Of a stretch of 57,384 bases of DNA, positions 2,795 through 34,781 are shown piece after piece. This DNA comes from a virus (taxonomy: Duplodnaviria > Caudoviricetes): positions 1 to 57,384 of the IMG/VR virus record IMGVR_UViG_3300028041_000098; one strand, given 5' to 3'. How positions within the stretch are numbered: position 1 is the stretch's first letter; every line of letters begins with the position of its first letter. Under the pieces are notes generated by a model. That model did not search any database. It was not told the origin of the DNA and saw only the letters and a list, made by a program, of their open reading frames with translations. The translations under genes were made by a program, and so were the position numbers.

Positions 2795-2922
2795 GACTTC
2801 TTCTCGTCCTGGTCGCGAGGCGGGGGCGGCGGCTGCGGCGTGGGAATCGTCCCTTCGACAATTGTGCGCTGGACCGTATCCGGCAGCCGCGCCGGAATCT
2901 TCGGCTTGCCCTTGTCAGCCAT
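2791..2922 (-). CDS. Pro-rich micropeptide A (43 aa, MADKGKPKIPARLPDTVQRTIVEGTIPTPQPPPPPRDQDEKKS)
   Basis: Manual translation; AAAGAGGA RBS before ATG; below ORF-track size cutoff. Confidence 0.7.
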   Translation of the reverse strand: MADKGKPKIPARLPDTVQRTIVEGTIPTPQPPPPPRDQDEKKS

Positions 2923-3024
2923 TGGCGTCCTCTTTCTTGAATCATCGCGCGGAAGATTGCAGCCTCCCCGCCGATCTGTGGGTCTCCCCCGGTTTCACAT
3001 ACTGGCGAGAATCTCAGCCTTCGC

Positions 3025-3591
3025 TTAGGCGCTACAACTCCACCCGGCTGTCTTTTCGACCATGTCGAATCCACGTACGTCAAAGGAACCTTCGGAGCCT
3101 TCGAACGGCTGTCCGAGTGAAAGGCGGTAGACCATGCGTCGGCTGCTTCGAAGAAGCGCTACGATGGCCTTCCCCGCCGCTGCAATCTGTGGCGCTCCAG
3201 GACTGCTTGTAAGCGTCTCGGCGTCAACGACACCGAGGATGAAATTTCCGTCTGCGTTCGAGCCGCCGATGTTCCTGATGAGTACTGCCTGCTCGATGTG
3301 GCGCAACGCGTAGAGCTCGGCGTCGGCCTTGTCGAATCTGATTTCGATTAGTGGTGGTCCAGACGTTCGCGTCGACTTTGGCAACGTAACGAACGCCACG
3401 TACTGATTGTTGTCGTTGCAAAACACCCGAAGTGATGCGGCCTTGTTCGAGGAGGCTAGCACCATGGTGGTGACCTTCTCATCTGTCATCGGATCGACGC
3501 TGCGCTGTACGCGCCATGCCGTCTGCGTCTGTGCAACGTTGATTTCCGCCGGGACGAGGCTAAGCATGAGAAGAGCTGGTGCCGCGCGCAT
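3025..3591 (-). CDS. Exported protein (signal peptide, W...DPMTD motif), lysogenic moron
   Basis: Hydrophobic N-terminus ending NVA-Q; more A/T-ending codons than flanks. Confidence 0.7.
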   Translation of the reverse strand: MRAAPALLMLSLVPAEINVAQTQTAWRVQRSVDPMTDEKVTTMVLASSNKAASLRVFCNDNNQYVAFVTLPKSTRTSGPPLIEIRFDKADAELYALRHIEQAVLIRNIGGSNADGNFILGVVDAETLTSSPGAPQIAAAGKAIVALLRSSRRMVYRLSLGQPFEGSEGSFDVRGFDMVEKTAGWSCSA

Positions 3592-3886
3592 CAGAGATCC
3601 CCTTTACAAGACGCAACGATGTCTGAACTTCGCTTGCCGCCGGCGAGCCCCGATGTGTCCGCTGATTCGTCAGCTCTTGGATCAAATCGTCGAACGCCTC
3701 GTGCGCTGCAGCCACCGCACCGCGGCGACGGTTGGCCGCGCGTACGAGCGACCGCAACAGCTCCGGCGCGACGATTTCAAGCCGGTCGAAGGCGCGCTGC
3801 GCTGCCCTGAGGTCTTTCACCAATTGCGCGTACTCAGGCCCGGATAGAGAGCTGCGGATCGTGACTTCCAGTTTGGTCTTGCTCAT
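3560..3886 (-). CDS. Hypothetical protein in repressor operon
   Basis: GAGGAGG RBS directly after repressor stop. Confidence 0.6.
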   Translation of the reverse strand: MSKTKLEVTIRSSLSGPEYAQLVKDLRAAQRAFDRLEIVAPELLRSLVRAANRRRGAVAAAHEAFDDLIQELTNQRTHRGSPAASEVQTSLRLVKGISDARGTSSSHA

Positions 3887-3894
3887 CGGCCTCC

Positions 3895-4434
3895 TCAGGC
3901 GCGGCGGCGCTCCCTAGCCGCAAGCCTGCCCTCGATCAACAGCTGGATGGCACTTCGCTCTTCGTCAGTCAATGACTGCCAGTCTTGGAGGAGTGTCGCC
4001 TCCGCTTCGTCCCGCGTCGGCTGCTTCGGCCACAGGTGCGTCGTCATGCCCATCAGCGTGCTGATTTCAGCGGTCAAGTTGAGCAGCCGCGTGACCTGGT
4101 CAGAGGACAGTTCTTCGACGATTACATGCTCGTCGTCACCAGGGCCGATCTCACGCAGCAACTGACGGAGCTCCGCGAGTTTGTCGTTGAGGTACTCGCC
4201 GCGAGCGATCTCCGCTCGGTCGTACTCCTCATCGACGCCGCGCAATAGATCACCGATGCTGCAGTTCAACGCCTTCGCGAGTTTGAATAGGGTGGGCGTT
4301 TCCGGCAGGCCACGCTTGTCGTTCTCCCACGCGGATACGACCGACGGAGCAACCCCAATCTTCTTCGCGAGCTGTCCGGCACGCATGGCGCGCCCCATTC
4401 GCAACCTGCGTACGTTCGCACCGAAGCTCGCCAC
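3895..4434 (-). CDS. CI-like XRE HTH repressor (no S24 peptidase domain visible)
   Basis: FGANVRRLR...QLAKKIGVAPSVVSAWENDKRGLP...LAKALNCSIGDLL; divergent from cro-like gene; GTG 4434 inferred from promoter position. Confidence 0.9.
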   Translation of the reverse strand: MASFGANVRRLRMGRAMRAGQLAKKIGVAPSVVSAWENDKRGLPETPTLFKLAKALNCSIGDLLRGVDEEYDRAEIARGEYLNDKLAELRQLLREIGPGDDEHVIVEELSSDQVTRLLNLTAEISTLMGMTTHLWPKQPTRDEAEATLLQDWQSLTDEERSAIQLLIEGRLAARERRRA

Positions 4435-4441
4435 GCAGAGA

Positions 4442-4470
4442 ACGATAGCCCCAGAGCTATAAGCGCGCAA
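4442..4470 (-). promoter_or_regulatory. Repressor promoter, probably leaderless
   Basis: TTGCGC-17 nt-TATCGT-7 nt-GTG on minus strand, no SD. Confidence 0.6.
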
Positions 4471-4479
4471 TATTTTTTC

Positions 4480-4598
4480 GCCTGTAAGTTCCTGTAACGA
4501 CGCCACTTAGCCTGAAAGGTTGCGACAGCCTGAACTCACAGGCTATTTTTTCGCTTGACTGCTACGAACGGCGGCAGCAAACTTCGCCTGTGAGTTCA
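4480..4598. promoter_or_regulatory. Operator array of genetic switch
   Basis: Palindrome AGCCTG-N6-CAGGCT at 4527-4544; related GCCTGTAAGTTC (4480), AGCCTGAA (4509), GCCTGTGAGTTCA (4586). Confidence 0.7.
4555..4583 (+). promoter_or_regulatory. Early lytic promoter, probably leaderless
   Basis: TTGACT-17 nt-CAAACT-6 nt-GTG(4590). Confidence 0.55.
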
Positions 4599-4883
4599 CA
4601 CCAGCAGCGCCGACCACTTACCGCTGAACAGCTGGAGGCACTTCGTGCCGTGCCCCTTGGCGCGATGCCAAACAAGATCCGAATCGCTCTCGCGCTCGTC
4701 AAGGCGCGACAGGCCGACGTCGCCGAGGCCACGGGAATCCCGGCCCCGAACGTCAGCAACATCGTGAACGGCCGTCCGGTGATGCTCGACACGGCCAGAA
4801 AGCTCGCGGAGTTCTTCGGCTGCCAGATCGAAGACCTGTTCCCTGGCACTACCGAAGATCGCCGTCAGCGGGTGAGCGCCTGA
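4590..4883 (+). CDS. Cro-like XRE HTH regulator
   Basis: RQADVAEATGIPAPNVSNIVNG...ARKLAEFFGCQIEDLF. Confidence 0.88.
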   Translation: MSSHQQRRPLTAEQLEALRAVPLGAMPNKIRIALALVKARQADVAEATGIPAPNVSNIVNGRPVMLDTARKLAEFFGCQIEDLFPGTTEDRRQRVSA

Positions 4884-16110: not shown

Positions 16111-17643
16111 ATGCAACCACAGACCACGACGGCGCCGGATGGCGCCGCCACTCTCGTCGAGAAATTCGAGAAGCTGCCGATCGCCACGATTCAGCGGTCG
16201 GCCACGAATCCCCGCACGCACTTCGACGATGCCTACATCGCCGAACTCGCGTACAGCATCACGGAGAAGGGGCTCATCCAGCCGATCGTCGTCCGCCCGC
16301 ATGCCGAGCAGCGGGGCACCTACGAGATCGTCGCCGGCGAGTGCCGGTGGCGCGCCTCGAAGCTCGCCGGACTGGACCGCGTGCCGACGATCATCCGGAG
16401 CTACACCGACGAGCAGGTGCTCGAGGTGCAGCTGATCGAGAACATCCACCGCACCGATCTGACGCCGCTCGAGCAGGCCGTCGGATACCGGAAGCTGATC
16501 GACAGCAACCCCGACAAGCACAGCGCCGAGACGATCGCGCGGCGCATCGGGATGTCGCCGGCGTGGGTGTGGGACCGGCTGAAGCTGAACGATCTGATTC
16601 CCGAGGCGAAGCAGCTCCTCGAGGAGGAGCGGATCTCCGTCGGCCACGCGATCGTCATCTCCCGGCTGAAGCCGGCCGACCAGGCGCGCGTCATCAAGCC
16701 GGGCCGGTCGAACGGTTACAACGCCGATCGGAGCAGCGGGCTGTGGGAATCCGAGGATGCGTCGCTGCCGCTCGACCAGGACACAGGCAAGCCGGCGAAG
16801 AAGGGACCGTACGACGGCTGCAAACCGAAGACGATCCGGGAGCTCGAGAACTGGATCGCCGACCACATCCGGTTCGACATCCAGCATGCCGCGAAGGCAG
16901 CGCCGCTCGAGTTCGGTGAGGTCGCCGAGCAGGTCGCGGCGCGAGCCGCGGAGCCCGGCCGCGGCAAGAAGGTCGTCCCGATCACGTTCGACCAGGTGGC
17001 GCACACCGAAGCCGCGAAGGCCGACGACGAGCGGACGTACGGCTCGAGCGCCTGGAAGCGGGCGGACGGCCAAGCCGGCTCGAAGACGTGCGAGCACGCG
17101 GTCCTCGGCGTCGTCGTCGCCGGCGATCGCGAGTACGGCCGCTCGTTCGACGTCTGCGTCGCGCGACACAAATGCACCGTCCACTGGGCGAAGGAGGTCA
17201 AGGCGAAGCAGCAGGCGCAGAAGCTCCGGGAGTCGGGGCAGACGAAGAAGGCGGCGAATGTGGAGAAGCGCGCCGAGGATCGCTGGGCGGTGCAGCGGCG
17301 GCGCGAGGAGGAGCAGCGCAAGGCCTGGGAGGCGCTGAAGCCGAAGGCGATGGCGGCATTGGCCGAGCACCTGAAGACCCAGGCGGTCACGCCGGCACTC
17401 GTCGGGCAGTTGATCGGCTGGAATCTGAAGGAGGTCGAGAAGCTGACCGGCAAGCTCACCGAGAAGAACCTCGGTCAGGCAATCGCGCTCGCTGTCGTGA
17501 TCGACGACGGCACCTACAACCGCGACGCGTTCCTGCGGGCCGTGAAGCCGTTCGGGTTCAACCTGGGCGCCGTCGAGCGGGCGCAGAAGCCATCCGCCGC
17601 GGCGCCGGCGAAGAAGGCCGCGAAGGCCGGGAAGAAGCGGTAG
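16111..17643 (+). CDS. ParB/RepB/Spo0J family protein
   Basis: NPRTHFD...GLIQPIVVR...YEIVAGECRWRA...QLIENIHRTDLTPLEQA + HTH. Confidence 0.92.
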   Translation: MQPQTTTAPDGAATLVEKFEKLPIATIQRSATNPRTHFDDAYIAELAYSITEKGLIQPIVVRPHAEQRGTYEIVAGECRWRASKLAGLDRVPTIIRSYTDEQVLEVQLIENIHRTDLTPLEQAVGYRKLIDSNPDKHSAETIARRIGMSPAWVWDRLKLNDLIPEAKQLLEEERISVGHAIVISRLKPADQARVIKPGRSNGYNADRSSGLWESEDASLPLDQDTGKPAKKGPYDGCKPKTIRELENWIADHIRFDIQHAAKAAPLEFGEVAEQVAARAAEPGRGKKVVPITFDQVAHTEAAKADDERTYGSSAWKRADGQAGSKTCEHAVLGVVVAGDREYGRSFDVCVARHKCTVHWAKEVKAKQQAQKLRESGQTKKAANVEKRAEDRWAVQRRREEEQRKAWEALKPKAMAALAEHLKTQAVTPALVGQLIGWNLKEVEKLTGKLTEKNLGQAIALAVVIDDGTYNRDAFLRAVKPFGFNLGAVERAQKPSAAAPAKKAAKAGKKR

Positions 17644-19493: not shown

Positions 19494-19834
19494 CGATGAA
19501 GACCTTCACGATCGGCTGCCTGGCGTTTCTGGTCGGCGGTGTCATCACTATTCAGTTCAGGCTGGAGCAGATTCGTCGAGGTATCGCAGCCCTGGACGTG
19601 GCTCGGCCCATCACGGCCGTTGCCGCTCAGGCGACGCCACTCGCCACCGAGGCGGACCGCGCGATCGCGCCGCTGGAGATCTCGCGCGACGGGCGCCAGG
19701 TCACGTTCCGCGGACCTGCTCCCGACGACCTCCAGGTCTGCGTCGTGCTGCCGCTCGGGCAGACCTCCAGCGTGAAGTGGCGGGAGTGCTTCACCGTTGG
19801 CGACGTGCGCCGCGGCCGCTTCGGGGTGAAGTGA
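19490..19834 (+). CDS. Membrane-anchored hypothetical protein
   Basis: N-terminal hydrophobic helix; coupled overlaps. Confidence 0.65.
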   Translation: MTMKTFTIGCLAFLVGGVITIQFRLEQIRRGIAALDVARPITAVAAQATPLATEADRAIAPLEISRDGRQVTFRGPAPDDLQVCVVLPLGQTSSVKWRECFTVGDVRRGRFGVK

Positions 19835-20826
19835 TGGCGGAGAACAGCAGCATCGAATGGACGGATTCTACGTGGCCCGTGGTGACCGGCTGCGATTACG
19901 CCTCGCCCGGGTGCGCGAACTGTTACGCCGTCCGTGACGCGCGGCGTCTGAGCCACAACCCGAATCCAAGGGTGGCAGCGGCATTCGCGGGCGTCGTCGA
20001 GCCGACGGCAGCCGGCAAGCTGCGGTGGACGGGGCGGGTGAACTGCCTGGAGGAGCGGCTGGACTGGCCGCTGAAGTGGAAGCGGCCGCGGAAGATTTTT
20101 GTGTGCAACCAGAGCGACCTGTTCCATGAGGACGTTCCGCAAGCGTTCATCATCGCGGTGTTCAACCGGATGGCTCGGGCGCCACAGCACACGTTTCAGG
20201 TGCTGACCAAGAGGCCAGCGCGGATGCGGGAGATGGTGCAGTTGATCGACGCGCTGCGTGGTGGCTCCAGCCTTTACGCGAATTGGCCGCTCCCGAACGT
20301 GTGGCTCGGCGTCTCGGTGGAGAACCAGCGATTCGCCGACGAGCGGATCCCGCTCCTGCTCCAGACGCCCGCGGCGGTGCGGTTCATCTCCGCCGAGCCG
20401 TTGCTCGGTCCCCTCGAGCTGCGCCACGACTGGCTCTATGAATACCGGAACCTGAACCCCGTGAAGGCGATCGTTCCTGCTGGCGCGCCGCTGCCGCGGC
20501 TGTCATGGGTCATCGTCGGCGGGGAGAGCGGCAAGGGCGCGCGGCCGTTCGATCTCGCGTGGGCGCGCTCGATCGTCCAGCAGTGCCAGGCGGCAGGGAC
20601 AGCGGTGTTCGTGAAGCAGCTCGGGGCGAAGCCGCTGGAGTTCTTCCGCCGCCGCCCTGAGGACCCGCAGCACGTCGAAGGATGGACCGCGGTTTACTCC
20701 GGTGATCAGGCGTCGTGGTACCGCTACCTACGGCTGAAGGACAAGAAGGGCGGCACACCAGACGAGTGGCCTCACGAGGGCCTGCGCGTCAGGGAGTTCC
20801 CTGAGGTGGCGCCGTGCCGTCCCTGA
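19834..20826 (+). CDS. DUF5131 / phage Gp37-Gp68 family protein
   Basis: SIEWTDSTW...GCDYASPGCANCYA...SDLFHE...QVLTKRP...NVWLGVSVENQ...WVIVGGESG. Confidence 0.93.
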   Translation: MAENSSIEWTDSTWPVVTGCDYASPGCANCYAVRDARRLSHNPNPRVAAAFAGVVEPTAAGKLRWTGRVNCLEERLDWPLKWKRPRKIFVCNQSDLFHEDVPQAFIIAVFNRMARAPQHTFQVLTKRPARMREMVQLIDALRGGSSLYANWPLPNVWLGVSVENQRFADERIPLLLQTPAAVRFISAEPLLGPLELRHDWLYEYRNLNPVKAIVPAGAPLPRLSWVIVGGESGKGARPFDLAWARSIVQQCQAAGTAVFVKQLGAKPLEFFRRRPEDPQHVEGWTAVYSGDQASWYRYLRLKDKKGGTPDEWPHEGLRVREFPEVAPCRP

Positions 20827-21795: not shown

Positions 21796-23088
21796 GTGTC
21801 CAGCCCTAAAGAAAAACCAGAAAGTCTCGATCTATCGGCACTTACGCCCGATCCCAACAATGCCCGACGGCACAACGCCCGGAACCTCGAGATGATCACC
21901 GACGCACTCCAGGAGGTCGGCGCCGCGCGCAGCATCGTCATCGACGAGGAGGGGACGATCCTCGCCGGCAACGCGACCGTGGAAGCCGCGGCGCGCGCCG
22001 GCATCGAGAAGGTTCTCGTCGTCGACGTCGACGGCCGGACGCTCGTGGCGGTCCGGCGACGGGACCTCGCGCCGGAGCAGAAGGTCAAGTTGTCGGTGTA
22101 CGACAACCGCGCGGCCGAACTCGCCGAGTGGGATCCCGCCGTCCTCGCGCGCCTGCAGCAGGAGTTTCCAGACTTCGACATCCACGCGTTCTGGGACGCG
22201 CGCGAGTTCGACCAGGTCATGGAGGGGCTCGGCGAGAGTGCGCCAGGCTTCACCGACCCAGACGCGATCCCGCCGCTGCGCGGCACCGACATCATGCCTG
22301 GTGACGTCTTCCGGCTCGGCGCGCACCGACTCCTGTGCGGCGACAGCACGAACCCGGCACACGTCGCCGCGCTGTTCGCCGGCGCCGTCCCGTTCCTCAT
22401 GGTGACGGATCCGCCGTACGGCGTGGAGTACGACCCGACCTGGCGCAACCGCGCCGGCGTCAGCGAATCACTGCGCACAGGGGCGGTCGCGAACGACGAT
22501 CGCGCCGACTGGTCCGACGCCTGGCGCCTGTTCCCGGGCGACGTCGCGTACGTGTGGCACGCCGGCATCTACTCCTCGGTGGTGGAGTCGTCGCTGGTGG
22601 CCACCGGCTTCGAGCCGCGGGCGCAGATCATCTGGCGAAAGCCGAGGTTCGTCCTGAGCCGCGGGCATTACCACTGGCAGCACGAGCCCTGCTGGTACGC
22701 CGTGCGCCGCGGCGCCGCCGCGAAGTGGACCGGACGCCGCAATCAATCGACCGTCTGGAACCTGGCGACCTTCCTCCGCTGCAACCACTGCGGCGCCGTG
22801 CTCGCCGAGGCGGCCGACGTTTCTGCCTCGACGGTCTGGGACATCGAGCACGCGGACGAAACCGGCGTGACGCGACACGGCACGCAGAAGCCGGTCGAGT
22901 GCATGGAGCGCCCGCTCCGGAACCACGGCGGCCGCGGCGATGCCGTGTACGAGCCGTTCAGCGGGAGCGGCTCAACCCTCATCGCTGCCGAGCGGCAGCG
23001 CCGTGCGTGCTTTGCCATCGAGCTCACGCCCGGCTACGTCCAGATGGCGATCGATCGATGGGAGCACTACACCGGACAGAAGGCGTAG
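21796..23088 (+). CDS. ParB-like N-terminal domain + beta-class amino (m6A/m4C) DNA methyltransferase
   Basis: HRLLCGDS, TDPPYG, HGTQKPVE, YEPFSGSGSTLIA; no cognate nuclease seen. Confidence 0.93.
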   Translation: MSSPKEKPESLDLSALTPDPNNARRHNARNLEMITDALQEVGAARSIVIDEEGTILAGNATVEAAARAGIEKVLVVDVDGRTLVAVRRRDLAPEQKVKLSVYDNRAAELAEWDPAVLARLQQEFPDFDIHAFWDAREFDQVMEGLGESAPGFTDPDAIPPLRGTDIMPGDVFRLGAHRLLCGDSTNPAHVAALFAGAVPFLMVTDPPYGVEYDPTWRNRAGVSESLRTGAVANDDRADWSDAWRLFPGDVAYVWHAGIYSSVVESSLVATGFEPRAQIIWRKPRFVLSRGHYHWQHEPCWYAVRRGAAAKWTGRRNQSTVWNLATFLRCNHCGAVLAEAADVSASTVWDIEHADETGVTRHGTQKPVECMERPLRNHGGRGDAVYEPFSGSGSTLIAAERQRRACFAIELTPGYVQMAIDRWEHYTGQKA

Positions 23089-23129
23089 AAGGTCGGCGAG
23101 ATCCGCTGACCACAACACAGGAGAGACGT

Positions 23130-23477
23130 GTGAATCGAAAACTCTACGTCGGCAATTTTCCGTTCGCCACGACGGAGCGCGAGCTGCGCGAGGCCTTCAG
23201 CCAGGCGGGCGCCGTCGAGAAGTGCAACGTCGTCAACGACAAGGACACCGGTAGGCCGCGGGGCTACGGCTTCGTCACGATGGCGACCGAGGCGGACGCC
23301 CTGGCGGCGATTCAGCGATTCGACGGCACCGACTTCGGGGGGCGCACCCTCGTCGTCTCGCCGGCGAAGGAGTCGCCGCGGCCGGACGGCACTGGGTCCG
23401 GCCGCCGTGACGATCGCGAGTACCACCGGCGCGAGGACCGGCGCGATCGCCGGTCACAGCGAGAGGCGCGCTGGTAG
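23130..23477 (+). CDS. RRM (RNP-1/RNP-2) RNA-binding protein
   Basis: RNP2 LYVGNF, RNP1 RGYGFVTM, R/D-rich tail; AGGAG RBS. Confidence 0.95.
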   Translation: MNRKLYVGNFPFATTERELREAFSQAGAVEKCNVVNDKDTGRPRGYGFVTMATEADALAAIQRFDGTDFGGRTLVVSPAKESPRPDGTGSGRRDDREYHRREDRRDRRSQREARW

Positions 23478-23480
23478 GTC

Positions 23481-25307
23481 ATGAAGCCGCACACGATCCA
23501 CCTCGGGTACGAGGTCGGGACCGGCGACCCCGTGGCGATCCCGTTGAAGCACCTGGTCATCACCGGCATGACGCAGGAGGCCGGGAAGACCACCGCGCTC
23601 GAAGCGCTGATCTCGCGCGCGCCCGCCCGGGCGATCACCTTCGTGACCAAGCGCGGCGAGGGCGCGTTCGCCGGCGGCCGCCGGATCCCGCCGTTCTTCC
23701 GCGAGCGCGCTGACTGGGTGTTCGTCTCGTCGCTGATCGACGCCACGCTCGGCGAAAAGAACAAGTTGCTGCGCTCCTGGCTGATGAAGGTGTGCCGCAA
23801 CACGTCGACGCTCGCCGAGGTCCTCGTGAACGTCCGCACGGCGAAGGCCTCGGCGCGTGGCTTCTCGGAAAGCATCTACACCGAGATCGAGGGCTACCTC
23901 GAGCTCGTGGTCCCGCAGCTGCGGCGGCTGCCGGCGCACACCTCGCTGACGATCGGCGAGGGCCTGAACGTCATGGACCTCTCGCCGTACAGCACGGAGC
24001 TCCAGGCGCTCGTGATCCGGTCGGTGCTCGAGCACGTGTACGCGCACGAGCGAGACGTCATCACGGTGATTCCGGAGGCCTGGGAGTTCATCCCCGAGGG
24101 CCGTGGGACGCCCGTGAAGCGCGAGGCCGAGGTGCTGATCCGCAAGGGCGCGAGCCTCGGCAACTACGTGTGGATCGACAGCCAGGACCTCGCCGGCGTC
24201 TGGAAGACCGTCGTCCGCGCGGCCGCGGTGTGCCTGGTCGGCGTCCAGCGCGAGGCGAACGAGATCAAGCGCACGCTCGCCAACATCCCTGGTGGCATCG
24301 CAAAGCCGAAGGCGGCCGACGTCGCCACGCTGGAACTCGGGCAGTTCTACGTCTGCCATGGACGGCACGCGGTGAAGACCTACGTGCAGCCGGCGTGGAT
24401 GCCACTGGAAACGGCGCGGCTCATCGCGACGGGCACGGTGACCGTCGCCGACGCGATCAGGTCGCGGGCCTTCGTCAACAAGCTACGGGAGGAGGAGCAG
24501 GTGAATGCAGCAGAAGCGGAACGCATCCGGCAAGAGAGCCAGCAGCTCGCGCGCGACAACGAGACGCTTCGCCGCGAGAACGACGACCTACGGCGACGGA
24601 TCGACGCGCTCGAGAGCAGCCGTAGATCGGCTGATCAGCGACACCAGGATCCTCGGCGCGAGCCTGGTGATCAGTCCGGCGCTGGAGGCAATGACGCCGG
24701 CTCAGCGGCGAGCGCTCGGACGGATCATGCGGCAGGCGGGACGGCTCGCCAGGTGCAGCAGATCGCCGGCGCGACGCCGCTGACGAACGACGCGCTGTAC
24801 GCGGAGCTGCTCGCGCGGCTCGTGCAGGACGCGGCGAAGGATCCCGTGCTGCTCCGCGTGATCGCCACGAAGCCGGAGCTCGAGGTCCTCGTCGAGCGGA
24901 AGATGATCCAGATGGACGGCAGCAGCCTCAAGGGACGCGTCGCGCGGCTGATCGCCGAGGGGTTCTTCCGAGAGCCGCGCACGCAGGGCGCGACGCGCTC
25001 GGAGCTGAAACGTACCGGGCCCGACGTGAACAGCGGGAACCTGTCGCGCGCCTTCAGTGAGTTCGTGCGGGACGGATTCCTGACCGACGAGGGATCGGTC
25101 GGGTACCGCGAAGTCGCGGGGATGAAGACGCTGGGCGACGTGCGGCGGGCGATCCGGTGGCTCTCGGAGCGCGTGTCGGTAGCGGCCCGCTCCATCGAAG
25201 ACGTGCTGCACAACGAGAGGGAGCGAGACGGGCATGTGCGCGTGCTGCAGCAGGCGGCCAACGTCTTGGAGGCCGTAACTGCTGCAAAATCACCGAGTTC
25301 GACCTAA
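23481..25307 (+). CDS. HerA/FtsK-like P-loop ATPase with coiled coil and C-terminal wHTH
   Basis: HLVITGMTQEAGKTT, VITVIPEAWEFIP, IRKGASLG, IDSQ, LELGQFY. Confidence 0.75.
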   Translation: MKPHTIHLGYEVGTGDPVAIPLKHLVITGMTQEAGKTTALEALISRAPARAITFVTKRGEGAFAGGRRIPPFFRERADWVFVSSLIDATLGEKNKLLRSWLMKVCRNTSTLAEVLVNVRTAKASARGFSESIYTEIEGYLELVVPQLRRLPAHTSLTIGEGLNVMDLSPYSTELQALVIRSVLEHVYAHERDVITVIPEAWEFIPEGRGTPVKREAEVLIRKGASLGNYVWIDSQDLAGVWKTVVRAAAVCLVGVQREANEIKRTLANIPGGIAKPKAADVATLELGQFYVCHGRHAVKTYVQPAWMPLETARLIATGTVTVADAIRSRAFVNKLREEEQVNAAEAERIRQESQQLARDNETLRRENDDLRRRIDALESSRRSADQRHQDPRREPGDQSGAGGNDAGSAASARTDHAAGGTARQVQQIAGATPLTNDALYAELLARLVQDAAKDPVLLRVIATKPELEVLVERKMIQMDGSSLKGRVARLIAEGFFREPRTQGATRSELKRTGPDVNSGNLSRAFSEFVRDGFLTDEGSVGYREVAGMKTLGDVRRAIRWLSERVSVAARSIEDVLHNERERDGHVRVLQQAANVLEAVTAAKSPSST

Positions 25308-25330
25308 CGGGAAATTCCGTTCGATTTTTG

Positions 25331-25367
25331 TAGACAAAGCCAAGCGAGCCGACGTATAGTCTGTCTA
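25331..25367 (+). promoter_or_regulatory. Sigma70-like promoter of accessory cassette with flanking inverted repeat
   Basis: TAGACA-18 nt-TATAGT then TGTCTA; AT-rich patch. Confidence 0.6.
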
Positions 25368-25442
25368 TCGACGGCGGGCACGGAGAGCCTGCCACACCAC
25401 AGCGCCCGGTGCGTAGGGCGCCAGAACTCAGGAGACGCTGAG

Positions 25443-26447
25443 ATGACCCACCAGACCGACGCCCTCACCCAGACCCAGCAGACCGCGCTCGAGACCGCCG
25501 CCCGCGAGTGGCTCGCCGGCGAGCCCGAGGGCACGACCCCCGAGATCCTCGACGGCGGGATGTACGACGATCTGATCCGCGAGACCATCGGGCTCCCCGA
25601 GGGATCCAGCATCCCAACCGACGCGTGGCACATCGTGCGGCGGGTCTACGCCGACCTGCGCCGATGGGAACTGATCGAGGGCGGCGACGGCTTCGCCTAC
25701 GCCACGATCGAGGCAGACAGCGTCGAGGACGCGCTGGAGATCGCGCGCGGCAACGTGGATCGCGACCAGTACGACCCCGCAGACGAGCAGTCGACGCTGT
25801 ACATCGACGTCTGCGCGCGCAACATCGTCACCGGCGAGATGGCCCGGGCGACCGTGGTGCTGGAGCCCGAGGCGCCCGAGTGCCTCGCCGGGCAGGAGCA
25901 CGACTGGCAGAGCCCCCACGAGCTCGTCGGCGGGATCAAGGAGAATCCCGGCGTGTGGGGCCACGGCGGCGGCGTCATCATCCACGAGGCGTGCCTCCGC
26001 TGCGGCTGCCGCCGGACGACCGACACGTGGGCGCAGCGTCCCGACACCGGCCAGCAGGGACTCACCGAGGTCCGCTACGAGGCGGACTACTACGACCTCG
26101 ACGAGCTGGGCTACGTCGTCGAGGAGCGCGAGATCCCGACCGTCACGGCCGACCAGCTCACCATCTGCCGCAGCGACCTGGGCGACGGTGGCTGGAGCCT
26201 CCACCGCGGCGACGAGGACGACGTCCTGGCGAGCGGCGAGGCGGAGCAGACGGACGACGGCTGGAGCCGGCCGAACGCCGACGACTACCGCGCCGCGATC
26301 GATGCGAGCCGCGAGTCTCGCTGGATCGTGCTCGACCGCTCGGACTCGACCTACACCGTCGCGCGGGACGAGGACGACGCGCGCGAGATCGCCTATCGCT
26401 GCCGCCTCGGGCACGTCGGCGCCTACGTGTGGCAGGACGCCGAATGA
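25443..26447 (+). CDS. Highly acidic hypothetical protein
   Basis: AGGAG RBS; D/E-rich, no more than one Lys. Confidence 0.85.
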   Translation: MTHQTDALTQTQQTALETAAREWLAGEPEGTTPEILDGGMYDDLIRETIGLPEGSSIPTDAWHIVRRVYADLRRWELIEGGDGFAYATIEADSVEDALEIARGNVDRDQYDPADEQSTLYIDVCARNIVTGEMARATVVLEPEAPECLAGQEHDWQSPHELVGGIKENPGVWGHGGGVIIHEACLRCGCRRTTDTWAQRPDTGQQGLTEVRYEADYYDLDELGYVVEEREIPTVTADQLTICRSDLGDGGWSLHRGDEDDVLASGEAEQTDDGWSRPNADDYRAAIDASRESRWIVLDRSDSTYTVARDEDDAREIAYRCRLGHVGAYVWQDAE

Positions 26448-27517
26448 CCCGCCCACAGTTCGCGCCGCGCGGCTCCCACCGCGCGCGCACGATCCTTACG
26501 GCCGTGTCGCGGGGCTACCCGGACGCATGGACGCAGGTCGATCGGTTCCGGCAGTCCCGCGGGCGGGAGCTGCCGGCGTGGCCCATCTGGTGCTATCTCC
26601 CGTTGCACGGCGCGTACGCGATCGTGAGCGGCGGGGAGGATCGGCGCGTCCCGCTCGATCACATCCACCACGTCGGCATCCTCGGCGCGCTCGCGGCCTG
26701 GCGCGTCACCCAGGGGATCTACCGCTACGACCCGCAGCTCTACGCCGCGCTGCGCGAGACGCCGATGCCGGACGATCTGCCGGTGTCGGTCCTCTACCGG
26801 CTACCCGAGTGGTGCGTCTACCTCGAGACGCCCGGCGAGACTTGGATCGAGGGGCGGCCGATGCACGGCGTCTGGATCCACCTGGAGTGGGACGAGGGTG
26901 GCGCGGACGAGCTGCGGCTCGTGCTCGATACCGCGGAGGATCCATCGGATCCGCTCGACGCGGCCCACGGGCTGATCCCGCTGCCGCTCGTGCTCGGGCA
27001 GGGCTCGATCGCCGACGCGCTCCGGCGCGTCGTCGCCAGTGGCACGATGCGCGCGCAGGAGGCCGGCTACGGGGTCGCCTCGCCTGCCGTCACGGACGTC
27101 GAGCGCCTCTCGGCGTGGCTGTGGCCGATCGTCTCGCTGGCGCTGTACCTGTGTGCGGATGAGCCCGACATCGCCGGCGATCGCCGCCCGCGGCGCCCGG
27201 CGCCGACACGGACGAAGGCGGGATACCGCATCTTTCCGCCGGACCGTCTCACGACGTGGGACGTCGGTGTGCGGATCGGCGCGGCGATCCGTCGGTGGCA
27301 GGAGCGGGACGCACGCGAGGCGCGCGAGGCGACGGCATCAGGTCGCGCGCGGCCGCGGCCCCACATTCGGAGAGCGCACTATCACAGCTTCTGGCGCGGC
27401 CCGCGAGACGAGGCGCGCGCCAGCGAGCGGCAGCTCGTGCTGCGGTGGCTCCCGCCGATCCCGGTGAATGTCGCAGGAGACGATGATGTCGTCACGACGA
27501 TCCACGACGTCGAGTAG
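26444..27517 (+). CDS. AcrVA2/FinQ-like protein
   Basis: AWRVTQGIYRYD, LPEWCVY, LYLCADEPDI, VGVRIG, RPHIRRAHYHSFW, RWLPPIPVN match the motif series I recall for AcrVA2. Confidence 0.8.
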   Translation: MTRPQFAPRGSHRARTILTAVSRGYPDAWTQVDRFRQSRGRELPAWPIWCYLPLHGAYAIVSGGEDRRVPLDHIHHVGILGALAAWRVTQGIYRYDPQLYAALRETPMPDDLPVSVLYRLPEWCVYLETPGETWIEGRPMHGVWIHLEWDEGGADELRLVLDTAEDPSDPLDAAHGLIPLPLVLGQGSIADALRRVVASGTMRAQEAGYGVASPAVTDVERLSAWLWPIVSLALYLCADEPDIAGDRRPRRPAPTRTKAGYRIFPPDRLTTWDVGVRIGAAIRRWQERDAREAREATASGRARPRPHIRRAHYHSFWRGPRDEARASERQLVLRWLPPIPVNVAGDDDVVTTIHDVE

Positions 27518-27769
27518 AATACGCCGATCACAGGAGGAGCCGAATGGAGCTCGACGTGACGATCCAATGCGACGAGGACGGCGCGTTCATCGCGGAGTGT
27601 CCATCGATCCCGGGGTGCGTCAGCCAGGGGGCGACACGCGACGAGGCGCTCTCGAACGTGCGCGCAGCGGCGATCGAGTGTCTCACCGTGCGGCGCGAGT
27701 CGGGTCTGCCTCTCACGATCGAAACCGCCCGTATCACGCTGGACATGTGATCGGAGGATCCACGACGTC
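27499..27769 (+). repeat. 13-bp direct repeat flanking hicB
   Basis: GATCCACGACGTC at 27499-27511 and 27757-27769. Confidence 0.8.
27544..27750 (+). CDS. hicB: HicB-family antitoxin (short, orphan)
   Basis: DEDGAFIAECPSIPGCVSQGATRDEALSNVRAAA; no hicA nearby. Confidence 0.88.
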   Translation: MELDVTIQCDEDGAFIAECPSIPGCVSQGATRDEALSNVRAAAIECLTVRRESGLPLTIETARITLDM

Positions 27770-27977
27770 CCGTCGGGCTGACGCCGGCCGCCTCGGCGGC
27801 GCCGTCACGTCCCCGGCGAAGGCCGCGGCCGCTCGGCGCAATGGTGCGCTGAGGTCTCGGTCAATCTGCACCTGCCACTGCCTCTACAGCCGACACCGCG
27901 CGCAGCGCGACGGGTCACGCGGGAGCTGCAAGGATTGCCCGTGCCCCCGGTTCCGCCTGCTGGACGCCCGCAAATAA
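27747..27977 (+). CDS. Small basic protein with GG..TSPAKAAAARRNG motif and Cys/His finger
   Basis: GTGA overlap with hicB; CTCHC...H...CKDCPC. Confidence 0.55.
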   Translation: MIGGSTTSRRADAGRLGGAVTSPAKAAAARRNGALRSRSICTCHCLYSRHRAQRDGSRGSCKDCPCPRFRLLDARK

Positions 27978-28007
27978 CTGTCTACACTGAGGTGCGGAGG
28001 TGTTCGG

Positions 28008-28355
28008 GTGGACGACCCCCGCACGATCAAGGGCCCGATCGCGGGCCCCGACGACATCCCGGCCGGCTTCGCCCTCGGCCCGGGTGGGCTTCTCGTCCCG
28101 CAGGGTGACGCCCCCCGCGCGCGCGAGGTGTGGCGCGAGGAGGAGCGGAAGGCGATCCTGGCGGCCATCCGGATCGCCGAGCGGCACGACCTGCTCCTGA
28201 TGGTCGGCTGCAAGGACGACCGGTGCGCCGAGCACCCGCTGGTGGTCGAGCGGGAGCTGGAGGACGGCTCCCTGGCGTGGGTGTGCGACCACAAGGTGCG
28301 CGTCCTGACGCGGCCGCCTCGCCCGCGGCCGGCGCGGAAGGGGTTCAGGCCCTGA
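28008..28355 (+). CDS. Hypothetical protein
   Basis: GGAGGT RBS, codon bias. Confidence 0.7.
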   Translation: MDDPRTIKGPIAGPDDIPAGFALGPGGLLVPQGDAPRAREVWREEERKAILAAIRIAERHDLLLMVGCKDDRCAEHPLVVERELEDGSLAWVCDHKVRVLTRPPRPRPARKGFRP

Positions 28356-28356
28356 G

Positions 28357-28767
28357 ATGGCCTACCGGGTCATTTGCGAGGCTTGCGGACAGGCCATGGG
28401 GAACCCCGCCTGCGCCGTTTGTCGGCGCTCTGGGGGCAGCCAGAGCCTCGGACGGGCCGAACCGGCGCGGCCGCCTGACCCGCCTCGCCGGCCACCTGCT
28501 GGCGGTACGCGCGAGCGCCGCGATCCTCGCCGCCAGCACGCCCTGCAGGACGGCCGTCGAGCCAGCGATCCCACCCTCACGACCCGTGACGTCGCCGACC
28601 GGCTCGGCGTGTCAACGGCGTTCGTGATCGGGGAGATCCGCGACGGCCGGCTCACGGCCACGGTCTGGAAACGGGACGGGAAGCGGGCGATCTACCGGAT
28701 CGCGCCGGCCGACCTCGACGACTACGAGCGCCGCCACAGATGGAACCGGGGGCGCTCCGCCTCATAA
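28357..28767 (+). CDS. Zn-finger + HTH_17 (Xis/BldC-like) DNA-binding protein
   Basis: CEAC...CAVC; LTTRDVADRLGVS...IRDGRL...YRIAPADLDDY. Confidence 0.8.
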   Translation: MAYRVICEACGQAMGNPACAVCRRSGGSQSLGRAEPARPPDPPRRPPAGGTRERRDPRRQHALQDGRRASDPTLTTRDVADRLGVSTAFVIGEIRDGRLTATVWKRDGKRAIYRIAPADLDDYERRHRWNRGRSAS

Positions 28768-28774
28768 GCCCACC

Positions 28775-28837
28775 GAACGCACGGAACGCACCGATGCGAC
28801 GGAACGCGTGGAACGCACCGACGCAACGGACGAAACT
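28775..28837 (+). repeat. Seven 9-bp tandem degenerate repeats upstream of terS
   Basis: GAACGCACG GAACGCACC GATGCGACG GAACGCGTG GAACGCACC GACGCAACG GACGAAACT. Confidence 0.85.
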
Positions 28838-28991
28838 GAGCCTTTGCACGGGAATTCGGTCGTGCGACCCTCCAGACTGACGCGACGGTCCTGAGCCGGA
28901 TCGGCGCGTCGCCAACCACCACAACTTATTCGCTGCGCCTTATGGGCGAACACCGTGCGCGCGGCCGCGCTGCGCTCGGAGAAAGGCCGGA

Positions 28992-29603
28992 GTGCCGTCG
29001 AAGGTTCCGCGTGCGCTCGTCGTCGAACGCGAGACGACCGCGTGGCGGATGGCGTGTGCCGGGAAATCGCAGTCGGAGATCGCCGAGCATCTCGGGATCA
29101 CCCAGCCGGCGGTCAGTCAGATCCTGAAACGCGTCTCCACCCGGGTGCTCAAGGACCTCGATGGCTCCGTCGCCCGGCAGAAGGTGATCCAGGACGTCCG
29201 CCTGGAACACATCTACGCCGAGTCGATGGAGGCCTGGGCGAAGTCGAAGACTCCGAAGAAGAAGTCCAAGCGAAAGAAGCTCACTGCCGGTCTCTCGCCT
29301 ACGCAGCTCGCACAACTGCCGGACGGCGTAGCCCTGCCCGGACGGAATGGCGCACCGCTGACCCTCCGCGAGGAGACGACCGACGAGGCCTGCACGTCGG
29401 ACGGCAATTTCCTGTTCCTGCAGACGGCGCTGATGGCGCTCGCCGACAAGCGGAAGCTGTGGGGCATCGACGCGCCGAAGAAGGTGGATCTCGTCGATCA
29501 GCGCCGGCCGCTCGAGAAGCTCACCGACGAGGAGCTCCTGGCGCGCGCGCGCGAGAACGCGGCGCTCCTCGAGGCGGACGATGACCGGGAGCACGGCCAT
29601 TGA
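28992..29603 (+). CDS. terS: Terminase small subunit (HTH)
   Basis: N-terminal HTH, RKLWGIDAPKKVD, EKLTDEELL; directly before terL. Confidence 0.8.
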   Translation: MPSKVPRALVVERETTAWRMACAGKSQSEIAEHLGITQPAVSQILKRVSTRVLKDLDGSVARQKVIQDVRLEHIYAESMEAWAKSKTPKKKSKRKKLTAGLSPTQLAQLPDGVALPGRNGAPLTLREETTDEACTSDGNFLFLQTALMALADKRKLWGIDAPKKVDLVDQRRPLEKLTDEELLARARENAALLEADDDREHGH

Positions 29604-31399
29604 TCCGCGCGCTCTGCGTCGCGCTCGCCACGATCGGAGCGCTGCTCGTGGGTGACGTGCGCCTGGCCACCGCCGGCGAGCAGGCCGCGGTGCGCACGCG
29701 GCCGACCGCCAAGCAACTGCTGCGGTCGATCGAGGCGCAGGAAGAGCTGCTCGCGCGCAAGGCGGAGACCTCGCTGCGATCGTTCTACCGCCAGCAGTGG
29801 AAGATCGTCGAGCGCCTGCAGCCGCGGGTCGACAACTGGCACGTCGATGCGATCTGCGATCACCTGCAGGCGACGGTCGCGCCACCGAACGAGCGGCCGC
29901 AGATCAACCAGCTGGTGATCAACGTGCCGCCGCGGAACTCGAAGTCCACGACCACGTGCGTGGCGTTCCCCTCGTGGGTGTGGGGCCCGCGGAACCTGCC
30001 AGGGAAACGGTTCATCTTCATCACGCACGCGCTGCGCCTGGCGCGTCGCGACTCGCGCTACACGCGCGCGGTCATCACGTCGGGTTGGTACCAGCAGAAC
30101 TGGGGCGCGCGGTTCCGCCTGACCGGCGACCAGAACGCGAAGGACCGCTTCGATAACGACCAGACCGGCTACCGCATGATCGGCTCGATGCGCGGCGGCG
30201 TCATGGGCGAGGGCGCGAACTACCTCGTCGTCGACGATCCGATCGACGCCAACAAGCTCGCGAGCCAGAACGAGCTCGAGCACATCGTCGAGATGTGGAA
30301 GACGGGGCTCGTCACCCGCCTCAACGACCAGATCAACGACGTCCGGATCATCATCATGCAGCGGCTGCACGAAAACGACCTGTGCGGCCACGTGCTGAAG
30401 GAGGACGGCTGGGTCCACCTGAAGCTGCCGGCGGCGTTCGAGGTCGAGGATCGGTGCCGGACGTTCGTGTACGTGAGGAGGGATGATGCCGCAGGAGCCG
30501 AGGCCGGTACCAACGAACCAGATTCGACCGGCGCCGCCGCCACCCCCGCCGCCGAAGAGGACCTGCCCACACTGCGGCAGGTAGCGCCGGTCGGCCACAA
30601 ACGCGTCCTCTTCTTCGAAGACCCGCGCACCGAGGAAGGTGAGCCGCTGAACCCGAAGCGGTTCCCGCGCGAAGCGCTTGACAAGATGCGCGCGGAGGAC
30701 GAGGTCGTCTTCGCCGCGCAGCAACAGCAGCGCCCGGCCCCGCGAGGCGGCCAGATCCTGCAGGAGCAGTGGTGGCGGTACTACGATGCGCTGCCCGTCG
30801 ACGCCGAGGGAAAGCCGCGGAAGCCCGATCACGGCGCGCAGTCGTGGGACCTCGCGTTCAAGGATCTCAAGACGTCCGACTTCATCGCCTGCCTCGTCGG
30901 CGAGCTGTACGGCCCCGACATCTACATTCGCGCGTACTTCATGGACCGCCGCGGCTTCGGCGCGAGCTGCGACGAGATCCGACAGATGCGCAGCCGGTAC
31001 CCGCACCTGCCCGCGATCCTCATCGAGGACAAGGCCAACGGACCCGCCGTGATCGAGGTCCTCCGGCAGGAGATCTCCGGCATCGTGGACGTCGATCCGC
31101 AGGGCGGCAAGGTGGCCCGCGCGTTCGCTGCGCAGCCCACGCTGAAGGGCGGCAACGTCTACCTGCCGAACCCGATCGACGGCAGGACAGGGAAGGTGAT
31201 GCCCGAGCGGGCGTGGGTGCAGCGCTTCGTCGCGAACTGCGCCGTGTTCCCCAAGGGACGGCACGACGACGACGTCGACGCGTTCACCCAGCTCGTGACC
31301 TATCTCCGCGGCACGCACAACGCGATGCTCGACTTCATGAAGCAGCTGAAGGCGCGGGACGCGGAGCGCGCGCGCAAGGAGCGCGAGGGCCGTGGATGA
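29600..31399 (+). CDS. terL: Terminase large subunit
   Basis: INVPPRNSKS, LVVDDP, IMQRLHENDL, SWDLAFK, IEDKANG, HDDDVDA; start uncertain (TTG 29600 vs GTG 29690). Confidence 0.95.
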   Translation: MIRALCVALATIGALLVGDVRLATAGEQAAVRTRPTAKQLLRSIEAQEELLARKAETSLRSFYRQQWKIVERLQPRVDNWHVDAICDHLQATVAPPNERPQINQLVINVPPRNSKSTTTCVAFPSWVWGPRNLPGKRFIFITHALRLARRDSRYTRAVITSGWYQQNWGARFRLTGDQNAKDRFDNDQTGYRMIGSMRGGVMGEGANYLVVDDPIDANKLASQNELEHIVEMWKTGLVTRLNDQINDVRIIIMQRLHENDLCGHVLKEDGWVHLKLPAAFEVEDRCRTFVYVRRDDAAGAEAGTNEPDSTGAAATPAAEEDLPTLRQVAPVGHKRVLFFEDPRTEEGEPLNPKRFPREALDKMRAEDEVVFAAQQQQRPAPRGGQILQEQWWRYYDALPVDAEGKPRKPDHGAQSWDLAFKDLKTSDFIACLVGELYGPDIYIRAYFMDRRGFGASCDEIRQMRSRYPHLPAILIEDKANGPAVIEVLRQEISGIVDVDPQGGKVARAFAAQPTLKGGNVYLPNPIDGRTGKVMPERAWVQRFVANCAVFPKGRHDDDVDAFTQLVTYLRGTHNAMLDFMKQLKARDAERARKEREGRG

Positions 31400-33703: not shown

Positions 33704-34182
33704 CGCTGCGGCATGAACCTATCGCGGTGCCGCAGGGCTTTGCCGGCGAAGGGCTGCGCGAGTACCTGCCGATCGCGACCTCGCCGCGCCCGCCGCGCCG
33801 CTGGCCGTGGCTGCTGGCCCTCGTGACGCTGACGTTCATCGTCGGCCTCTGGTGCGGCACGCAGGTCCACGCCGCGAGTTGCCTCACGCTGAAGGTGCGG
33901 CCCCAGGCCATGCTGCGCCGCGGCGACGTGTCGGTCGAGGCGCGGATCCCGCGACACGCCGATCATCGGCTCCTCGCCGTCTCCTGGCTGTCGGAAAACG
34001 GCAAGGACGGCGGCTACCAGGTCCCGCTCGAGGGCGACCAGGCGCCGGCGGTGCGCACGGACTGGCTGCGCGACATGCCGCCGGCGCATTACGTGTTCAC
34101 CGCCGCTGTCATCGATAGCCGCGGCAAGGTGGTCGGTCGTGATCGCGCCGAAATCCTGACGATCGAAGGGGACCCGCGGTGA
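33700..34182 (+). CDS. Exported/membrane-anchored beta-sandwich-like protein
   Basis: RRWPWLLALVTLTFIVGLWCGTQVHA-A then beta-rich domain. Confidence 0.65.
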   Translation: MTLRHEPIAVPQGFAGEGLREYLPIATSPRPPRRWPWLLALVTLTFIVGLWCGTQVHAASCLTLKVRPQAMLRRGDVSVEARIPRHADHRLLAVSWLSENGKDGGYQVPLEGDQAPAVRTDWLRDMPPAHYVFTAAVIDSRGKVVGRDRAEILTIEGDPR

Positions 34183-34781
34183 AGACCATCCGCCAGATCG
34201 CCGACATCACCCCCGATCCGCACAACGCGAACAAGGGCACGAAGCGCGGTCACGATCTTCTGGAGCGCTCGATCGAGCGCAACGGCGCCGGGCGATCCAT
34301 CGTCGTCGATCGGCACGGCGTGATCATCGCCGGCAACAAGACCTGGGAGATGGCCGGCCAGGCGGGCCTCGACGTCGAGGTCGTCAGGACGGACGGCCGG
34401 AAGCTCGTCGTCGTGCAACGCATGGATCTGGATCTCGCGAGCGGGACGGACGCGCGTGCGCGGGAGCTGGCGATCGCCGACAACCGGACGAGCGAGGTCA
34501 GCCTCGACTGGGATCCGAACGTCCTGCTCCACCACGTGCCCGGCGTCAGCCTGTCGGAGTACTTCTTCGACCGCGAGCTCGCGCGGATCCTCGGGGAGGC
34601 CGACGAGAAGGGGGAGCTGGCCCCGCTCCCGGACAACACCAAGCGGACGAGGGGACCCTCCGAAGAGTGTGAAAAACCGGAAGCCGGCCGCTCGATCGAG
34701 CCGGACGCGGCCGCAGCGCCGGCGCACGATCCCGCCGACGAGGACCAGACGATCTGCCCGGAGTGCGGACACACATGGTGA
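34179..34781 (+). CDS. Stand-alone ParB-like domain protein
   Basis: TPDPHNAN...GAGRSIVVD...IIAGN...LAIADNR; paralog of MTase N-terminus. Confidence 0.8.
   Translation: MKTIRQIADITPDPHNANKGTKRGHDLLERSIERNGAGRSIVVDRHGVIIAGNKTWEMAGQAGLDVEVVRTDGRKLVVVQRMDLDLASGTDARARELAIADNRTSEVSLDWDPNVLLHHVPGVSLSEYFFDRELARILGEADEKGELAPLPDNTKRTRGPSEECEKPEAGRSIEPDAAAAPAHDPADEDQTICPECGHTW

Follow-up and report, generated by a model that had tools for sequence, protein, structure and literature searches.

A homolog of AcrVA2 and FinQ in a variable accessory segment of a predicted soil prophage

What does a phage protein related to the anti-CRISPR AcrVA2 and to the fertility inhibitor FinQ act on, and do the genes packed around it form a system with it? 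The question is raised by four genes in the virus record IMGVR_UViG_3300028041_000098 (Duplodnaviria; Caudoviricetes), a 57-kb provirus record of which positions 1-57,384 were analysed; this whole stretch is called the window below. An earlier note on this DNA had presented the four genes as a self-promoted, bounded anti-defence cassette. All four open reading frames (ORFs) are present on the + strand at the coordinates that it gave, and the very acidic character of the first product, like the small, basic, Cys/His nature of the last, was described correctly. The genes, with protein lengths in amino acids (aa), are as follows.

25443-26447, + strand: gene 1, an acidic 334-aa protein (P0001; isoelectric point (pI) 4.27; 71 D+E against 28 K+R)
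26444-27517, + strand: gene 2, a 357-aa protein of the AcrVA2/FinQ family by sequence, profile and fold (P0002)
27544-27750, + strand: gene 3, a 68-aa HicB-like protein with the N-terminal HicB/UPF0150-type domain only; GGAGG ahead of it
27747-27977, + strand: gene 4, a 76-aa basic protein with a GTG start (P0004; pI 11.28; 6 Cys, 2 His)

The ATG of gene 2 lies over the TGA of gene 1 in a 4-nucleotide (nt) overlap (ATGA), and the GTG of gene 4 lies over the TGA of gene 3, again with a 4-nt overlap. The G+C content by codon position was consistent with coding in all four (third-position values of 0.95, 0.89, 0.84 and 0.82 for genes 1 to 4), the signal being weakest for gene 4 (0.64/0.70/0.82 at the three positions). 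The explanation that we consider probable is that these genes make up an accessory segment of a prophage, packed behind a sigma-70-like promoter, in which the AcrVA2/FinQ-family product silences a specific target, a role assigned to it by homology, and the other three are co-located accessory genes.

The 357-aa product of gene 2 is a genuine homolog of AcrVA2 and FinQ by sequence, profile, fold and functional residues, and the AcrVA2-like series of motifs that the earlier note had read in it is real. When the protein was compared by phmmer with the sequences of the PDB, AcrVA2 (7ci1/7ci2) was the sole match below E 10, with 7ci1_A at E 9.6e-21 and 77.3 bits, and residues 73-342 of the gene 2 product were aligned with residues 64-317 of that chain. 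The profile phrog_6160 was matched nearly from end to end (E 8.3e-54; residues 13-343 of 357 against profile positions 7-318 of 322). By tblastn, plasmid genes annotated as finQ were found at E 1e-10 to 7e-10 (3 of the 40 listed matches, H32, H34 and H41, at 72-78% query cover), together with a Shewanella phage gene annotated as AcrVA2 at E 2e-9; the relation to both AcrVA2 and FinQ that had been predicted was thus significant in the profile and sequence comparisons. An AlphaFold model built on 37 relatives had a mean predicted local distance difference test (pLDDT) value of 90.8, and a Foldseek search with it returned AcrVA2 chains only (7ci1_A at E 5.6e-18, probability 1.00, template modelling scores of 0.62/0.73 over 357 columns), the next unrelated chain being at E 0.27. 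Relatives of the protein are numerous, 1060 of the 8000 candidates scored having reached E<=1e-5, and a precomputed PF26125 assignment was carried by its own entry and by all 120 relatives listed; the Pfam set used for our scan did not include PF26125, which explains the blank Pfam result for this protein. Among the matches listed, the closest relatives (up to 62% identity) were unnamed metagenome proteins, and two relatives at 51-54% identity have been named 'AcrVA2 family anti-CRISPR protein' by NCBI. Fusion of the AcrVA2 domain to other parts was seen in one 631-aa protein only.

The likeness extends to the residues on which AcrVA2 function depends. In the part of the study of Marino et al. 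(bioRxiv 10.1101/2022.11.29.518452) that was available, the substitutions W79A and D89A caused partial loss of AcrVA2 function, and H286A, R288A and H291A strong loss. In the phmmer alignment these positions correspond to W86, D96, H307, R309 and H312 of the 357-aa protein, all five of which are invariant in 37/37 aligned relatives. Thus the gene 2 product and AcrVA2 of a Moraxella bovoculi prophage (PDB 7CI1/7CI2) belong to one family and agree in fold along almost their entire length, and they have in common the W, D and H-x-R-x-x-H residues, a similar size (357 aa against 323 aa for the PDB chain) and a prophage origin. The gene 2 product differs from AcrVA2 in that the identity is only ~22-30%, the first ~70 residues do not align, and no AcrVA1-like neighbour was recognised.

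By homology, the gene 2 product would recognise the polypeptide of a specific target protein during its translation, and the mRNA of that target would then be lost, with the conserved C-terminal H-x-R-x-x-H region being used. The obvious candidate target is Cas12a, in which case the host would have a type V-A system and the phage would silence cas12a mRNA with a working anti-CRISPR. Such a role would agree with the retention of all five residues important in AcrVA2 and with the name given by NCBI to relatives, but it seems to us improbable, both for the low identity and unaligned N-terminus just described and for where the family is found. According to the same preprint, as far as it could be consulted, ~1,800 AcrVA2 orthologs, FinQ included, occur on diverse mobile elements, typically where Cas12a is absent, and homologs have been proposed to act on targets other than Cas12a; the suggestion in the earlier note that this homolog may have a different target agrees with that proposal. 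A Cas12a model found no match in the 57-kb record and likewise none in 14 control genomes, which makes that search uninformative. Rather than Cas12a, the more likely target would be a defence gene of the host or one that belongs to a competing mobile element.

If a competing element were the sole object, the prophage would use the protein as FinQ is used, excluding incoming plasmids or phages by silencing their genes instead of acting on host immunity. The homology to annotated finQ genes covers residues ~78-357 of the gene 2 product (24-27% identity, E ~1e-10), and both proteins are carried by a mobile element able to use them against other elements. In the accessible part of the work of Marino et al., F transfer was inhibited by FinQ, apparently with a fall in tra mRNA. 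The near-consensus promoter ahead of the segment would permit expression from the prophage, and 19 of the 40 plasmid records matched by tblastn, among the matches listed, were conjugative or mobilizable, one homolog lying directly after the BREX genes pglZ and brxL. Set against this, the position of the segment ahead of packaging genes suits lytic expression equally. We hold a role confined to conflict between elements to be unlikely. The two genes also differ in their setting: finQ is found on enterobacterial plasmids, where its product affects tra expression of F, and gene 2 lies in a high-GC soil provirus. The homolog next to BREX genes is also the closest named plasmid homolog among the matches listed (51.9% identity). 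It lies on the conjugative Thioflavicoccus mobilis plasmid pTHIMO01 (L146, 967-7020), where it follows pglZ, brxL and a 114-aa ORF in the same direction with overlapping starts and stops; this plasmid is a case of a defence operon to which a gene of the AcrVA2 family has been joined.

The second part of the question, whether the four genes belong together, was addressed with 73 viral and 80 metagenome loci of the AcrVA2 family, together with 67 in which the gene 1 family is present. The neighbours of AcrVA2 homologs were highly variable, the largest BLAST cluster being present in 4/72 loci, a rough figure since the gene caller was noisy. The gene 1 family was found in 1/73 of the viral AcrVA2 loci and in 0/80 of the metagenome loci (63 of which had >500 nt upstream), and conversely 66/67 of the gene 1 family loci were without an AcrVA2 homolog. 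No relative of gene 3 was found in the 73 viral loci (BLASTP) or the 80 metagenome loci, and none of gene 4 in the 73 viral loci (BLASTP). Among the 80 metagenome loci the gene 4 profile had one match (E 3.4e-5), in L211, which is the contig of viral locus L019 itself; by reading of the sequence the match involves the N-terminal G..GG..S..K..A.R.N motif only, in a 193-aa protein upstream of the homolog. Thus the four genes are a variable accessory segment and not a conserved anti-defence module, and the suggestion that the neighbours might be annotated through guilt by association fails, as the gene set is not conserved beside AcrVA2 homologs.

There is one other contig in which the profile searches found the gene 1 and AcrVA2 families together (L016, identical to L096). 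Its positions 2762-4689 hold a 71-aa ORF, a gene 1-like gene (145 aa) ending directly before the AcrVA2-like gene (348 aa), and an Xre-type helix-turn-helix (HTH) gene (68 aa), inserted between terminase/neck genes and head-tail-joining/portal genes. The terminase proteins of the window had no BLASTP match in any AcrVA2 locus, so the packaging proteins of L016 are unrelated to those of the window. Genes 1 and 2 have therefore travelled together at least twice, and the presence of the pair in two otherwise unrelated phages makes a functional link possible but rare.

This recurrence is one argument for taking all four genes as one system, in which the acidic protein, with its predicted zinc site, would partner the AcrVA2-like protein and genes 3 and 4 would provide an anti-CRISPR-associated (Aca)-like autoregulator acting on the TGTAGACA/TGTCTA sites around the promoter. 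The 4-nt overlaps that join genes 1 and 2 and genes 3 and 4 would fit such a system, as would the imperfect inverted pair that brackets the promoter, the exact complement of its first arm after the last ORF, and the basic last protein with its invariant Cys/His motif. The layout also resembles that of acr-aca operons in that a promoter-proximal gene of an Acr family is followed by small genes and an inverted-repeat-like motif brackets the promoter, and in L016 the homolog is followed by the Xre-type HTH gene. However, the small genes of the segment, in contrast to those of acr-aca operons, have no recognised HTH or ribbon-helix-helix (RHH) domain, and when small ORFs downstream of AcrVA2 homologs were scanned (from the 120 of 138 unique loci with downstream room), only 3/74 had an HTH or RHH match in Pfam. 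A general acr-aca layout in the family is not supported. Several downstream ORFs had looked HTH-like by eye and were not confirmed by the Pfam scan. Together with the counts of gene 1, gene 3 and gene 4 relatives given above, and with repeat arms that do not extend beyond 8 nt, this leads us to think it quite unlikely that the four genes are one system.

For gene 1, 161 of 3436 candidates were relatives at E<=1e-3, and neither a name nor a Pfam family was attached to any of them. When 40 sequences were aligned, the shared part was confined to the middle of the protein (~residues 73-215), and this core holds an almost invariant stretch, HDWQSP..LVGGI.ENPGVWGHGGG; the C-terminal third is common only to the three closest relatives. 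C147, H153, C184 and C187 are invariant in the family and form a predicted zinc site. The protein itself had no match in Pfam, PHROG, NCBIfam, PADLOC or the PDB sequences, and its predicted model (pLDDT 80.7) had no convincing neighbour in structure, nothing being retrieved at E<=1e-3 when it was searched by Foldseek against the PDB and BFVD. In a wide VIA-align search the best Z was 5.5, and core residues 140-215 were barely covered by the listed matches; in the ESM Atlas there were feature matches below 0.8 only. The acidity of the protein invites comparison with DNA mimics of the ArdA/Ocr type, and in that comparison no Pfam, PHROG, NCBIfam or PADLOC family was matched, there was no Foldseek match at E<=1e-3 and the 140-215 core was again barely covered by VIA-align. 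A likeness to AcrIF9 (VIA-align Z 4.9 over 57 residues) was discarded, being within the range of chance arrangements. Of the neighbours of the gene 1 family, 23 of the 150 scanned (from 162 candidates) had a Pfam family, among them integrases/resolvase, HNH, GIY-YIG and EndoVII nucleases, the S-adenosylmethionine (SAM)-lyase family, ADP-ribosylglycohydrolase and others. These indicate accessory regions, without a clear function.

One could go further and see in the acidic Cys-His-Cys-Cys family a new phage accessory or anti-defence factor able to work with AcrVA2-family proteins, which would perhaps supply or modulate the choice of target for translation-coupled mRNA silencing, with the HicB-like and zinc-knuckle-like pair as a non-HTH regulator. 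The basis offered for this is that in two otherwise unrelated phages the gene lies directly upstream of, and translationally coupled to, an AcrVA2 homolog. We regard the idea as very improbable. A complex prediction for the AcrVA2-like protein with the gene 1 core (residues 73-220) gave no verdict (score 0.00).

The products of genes 3 and 4 are small and of different kinds. Gene 3 matched PF15919 at E 2.3e-5 with 25.0 bits, just under the cut-off of 27 (profile positions 3-46 of 123), and phrog_497 ('HicB-like') at E 2.6e-8. Its likeness to the HicAB type II toxin-antitoxin system lies in this match to the N-terminal part of the HicB-like profile; unlike a HicB of such a system, the 68-aa protein has no C-terminal DNA-binding domain, no HTH or RHH family was listed for it, and the 57-kb record contained no match to HicA (PF07927) at E<=1, in a search whose control was positive in 12/14 genomes. 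The earlier description of gene 3 as an orphan HicB holds in that no HicA is present in the record, the protein itself being HicB-like with a Pfam score just below the cut-off. Gene 4 encodes a genuine protein, small, basic and rarely met with, which has a zinc-knuckle-like motif. It had 8 matches at E<=1e-3 among 1.84 billion representatives, and six relatives of 70-105 aa were aligned, two long multi-stretch matches (2916 and 592 aa) being left out. Invariant positions were G14, G17, G18, C41, C43, H50, G56, S57, R58, C61, K62, C64 and C66. The Cys and His positions among them give the motif C-x-C...H...C-x2-C-x-C, and the protein also has the motif G..GG....S.AK..AAR.N near its N-terminus. 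No family was found for it in Pfam, PHROGs or NCBIfam, nor any HTH or RHH, and a search of viral contigs with a tighter alignment, the first having been too loose, found no relative. The proposal that the last ORF is an Aca-like autoregulator thus has no support beyond its position and the short repeat. A search of the literature on HicB in connection with anti-CRISPR and Aca proteins, and on FinQ, found nothing beyond the work of Marino et al. As a separate observation, the 193-aa protein of L019 (4420-5001), which is encoded immediately upstream of the AcrVA2 homolog with a 4-nt overlap, has the motif LGRRGG..KSERKTAAVRENAKKGGRP, which resembles the N-terminal motif of the gene 4 protein (profile E 3.4e-5).

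How the segment is expressed bears both on the notion of a bounded cassette and on the regulator. The relevant features of the two gaps that flank it are these.

25306-25321, + strand: terminator-like hairpin of 6 pairs, 3 of them G-C, then CGATTTTTGT; just 3' of the stop codon of the upstream 608-aa gene
25329-25336, + strand: TGTAGACA, overlapping the -35 hexamer; the window has two copies in all
25331-25336 (-35) and 25355-25360 (-10), + strand: sigma-70-like promoter TAGACA-18 nt-TATAGT, agreeing with the consensus at 10/12 positions
25362-25367, + strand: TGTCTA, directly after the -10 hexamer
27979-27986, + strand: TGTCTACA, the reverse complement of the 8-mer at 25329, in the 30-nt gap before the GTG at 28008

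The TAGACA-18-TATAGT element is present ahead of the genes as had been noted, and is promoter-like by its match to the consensus. Three promoter scans of the window gave 0, 1 and 0 matches, where 1.1, 0.7 and 0.9 were expected from shuffles, and 25331-25360 was the sole match. In number this is no more than chance; what is suggestive is the position, as the match lies in a 135-nt intergenic gap directly behind the hairpin at 25306-25321, which by consensus match is the sole terminator-like site on the + strand within 22500-30000, though with a weak stem. The fold of the 5' leader was unremarkable (z -1.16).

For the repeats, the observation itself was accurate: the 8-mer and its exact complement are at 25329 and 27979, and TGTCTA follows the -10 hexamer. 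On both strands of the window TGTAGACA occurs at these two places only, 25329 (+) and 27979 (-), where 0.19 were expected and 2 were reached in 1/100 shuffles. The hexamer TAGACA/TGTCTA occurs 3 times in the window (25331, 25362 and 27979), always in these two gaps, against 3.7-4.0 expected, so that there is no enrichment, and the 8-mer arms are not longer than 8 nt, the pair being absent from the 25 longest of 215 inverted pairs of >=10 nt. The significance of the repeat is modest, because words containing A and T are expected to cluster in the intergenic DNA of a genome of 69% GC. TGTAGACA at 25329 and TGTCTAtc at 25362 form an imperfect inverted pair (6/8), ~33 bp apart, which brackets the -35 hexamer and the start region and may be regarded as a putative operator. 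What is not supported is the idea that the outer pair bounds a cassette, since the 3' end of the segment is open. Between 25321 and 34540 a simple terminator scan, which can miss terminators, found no terminator-like site on the + strand, and the next gene starts with a GTG at 28008 after a gap of 30 nt and has its own GGAGG; the four-gene unit is therefore open toward the packaging genes, and its being self-contained is not supported.

The same facts would suit a phage late or middle promoter at 25331-25360, from which the four ORFs would be transcribed at the head of a long operon of packaging and structural genes, without separate regulation. In addition to the lack of a detected terminator and the short gap to a gene with its own GGAGG, every gene from ~4590 on lies on the + strand. 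Set against this, late promoters usually depend on an activator and have no good -35 hexamer, and a terminator could have escaped a simple scan. We consider a late or middle operon a possible reading, somewhat short of an even chance, and it is compatible with the role preferred above for the AcrVA2-like protein. In our preferred explanation, the sigma-70-like promoter would drive four translationally packed genes at the junction of DNA-metabolism and packaging genes, transcription from it probably continuing into the latter, and the acidic, HicB-like and zinc-knuckle-like proteins would be co-located accessory genes rather than parts of a conserved system.

Several points weigh against that explanation. 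With so little identity to AcrVA2, and with ~70 N-terminal residues of the 357-aa protein left unaligned, the sequence does not reveal the target. How FinQ works is not settled in the available text of bioRxiv 10.1101/2022.11.29.518452, and the RNA-degrading step and machinery of AcrVA2 are described as still unknown in the accessible part of a 2026 review (PMC13131331); a mode of action like that of AcrVA2 is therefore extrapolated across a deep family. A lone promoter match in 57 kb is no more than chance would give, and the sigma-70 consensus may not be that of the host. Finally, L016 has the gene 1 family directly ahead of an AcrVA2 homolog, so that a link between genes 1 and 2 cannot be dismissed.

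The setting of the segment is that of a prophage. From its gene content the window, of ~69% G+C, would be a temperate tailed phage integrated in a soil bacterium, and all likely genes from ~4590 on are on the + strand. The four genes are placed at the junction of a DNA-metabolism and modification block with the packaging block, as is seen from the genes below, all identified by PHROG matches.

1-1383, - strand: integrase
3895-4506, - strand: repressor; a Cro-like gene is also present
Next in order: recombination and replication genes, with HNH nuclease, RecT and exonuclease
16111-17643, + strand: ParB-like protein
21796-23088, + strand: ParB-methyltransferase fusion
28992-29603, + strand: HTH small-terminase-like gene, 3' of the four-gene segment
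29600-31399, + strand: large terminase (TerL)
3' of the large terminase, + strand: portal, protease, capsid and tail genes
56265-56819, + strand: endolysin

Among isolated phages the best relatives had at most 34% identity in TerL and 32% in the capsid protein and came from unrelated hosts, so the host taxon cannot be read from them. The gene 2 product is also recorded on a contig of 106.8 kb. Identical DNA is present in soil-metagenome runs, none of the 9 listed being an RNA run, and contigs of 4 runs carry letter-for-letter copies that bridge both ends of the segment; the odd joints seen in these contigs were short-sided only and were taken as noise. In one contig of run X3 (depth 5.8 of 31.1) 2 bases are missing at position 27806, inside the 76-aa ORF; either a frameshift variant or a mistake in assembly could account for this. 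No known RNAs or tRNAs were found in the window.

Some other genes of the window deserve mention in their own right. Two genes 3' of the segment, ahead of the small-terminase-like gene, a 136-aa protein (28357-28767) combines a Cys-rich N-terminal stretch with an HTH_17 domain (excisionase/MerR-like; Pfam E 4e-7) and is a more conventional candidate for a DNA-binding regulator of this stretch. Directly upstream of the segment, the 608-aa protein (23481-25307) combines a Walker-A-like GKTT close to the N-terminus with a central coiled coil, and belongs to no solid family, its matches to YabA and to PADLOC models (mad8, E 3.9e-4; HTH model, E 1.3e-4) being weak. Further upstream, a DUF5131 protein (19777-20826; Pfam E 2e-79; phrog_2045 E 1e-92) has strong matches among the candidate-defence models of PADLOC, to PDC-M41B (E 1.2e-67) and to PDC-M30B. 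It is encoded just ahead of the ParB-methyltransferase fusion (21796-23088), and these two genes may be a phage DNA-modification or defence-candidate module. In all, three separate genes with a ParB-like N-terminal domain are present in this one provirus (16111-17643, 21796-23088 and 34179-34781), one being fused to an N6/N4 DNA methylase and one lying between portal and head-morphogenesis genes.

The neighbours of gene 2 not being a conserved anti-defence module, guilt by association should not be used for annotating them. The 357-aa protein adds a member to an already described and widespread family, and close relatives may already be included among the ~1,800 orthologs of Marino et al.; by itself this member does not change what is known. 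To our knowledge AcrVA2 is the first bacterial protein shown to silence a gene by recognising the nascent polypeptide, and the question for its family is what the many homologs found without Cas12a act on. To that question the provirus contributes a further member from a soil host of high GC, full-length, well conserved and retaining every functional residue, which could serve as a test case for target discovery.

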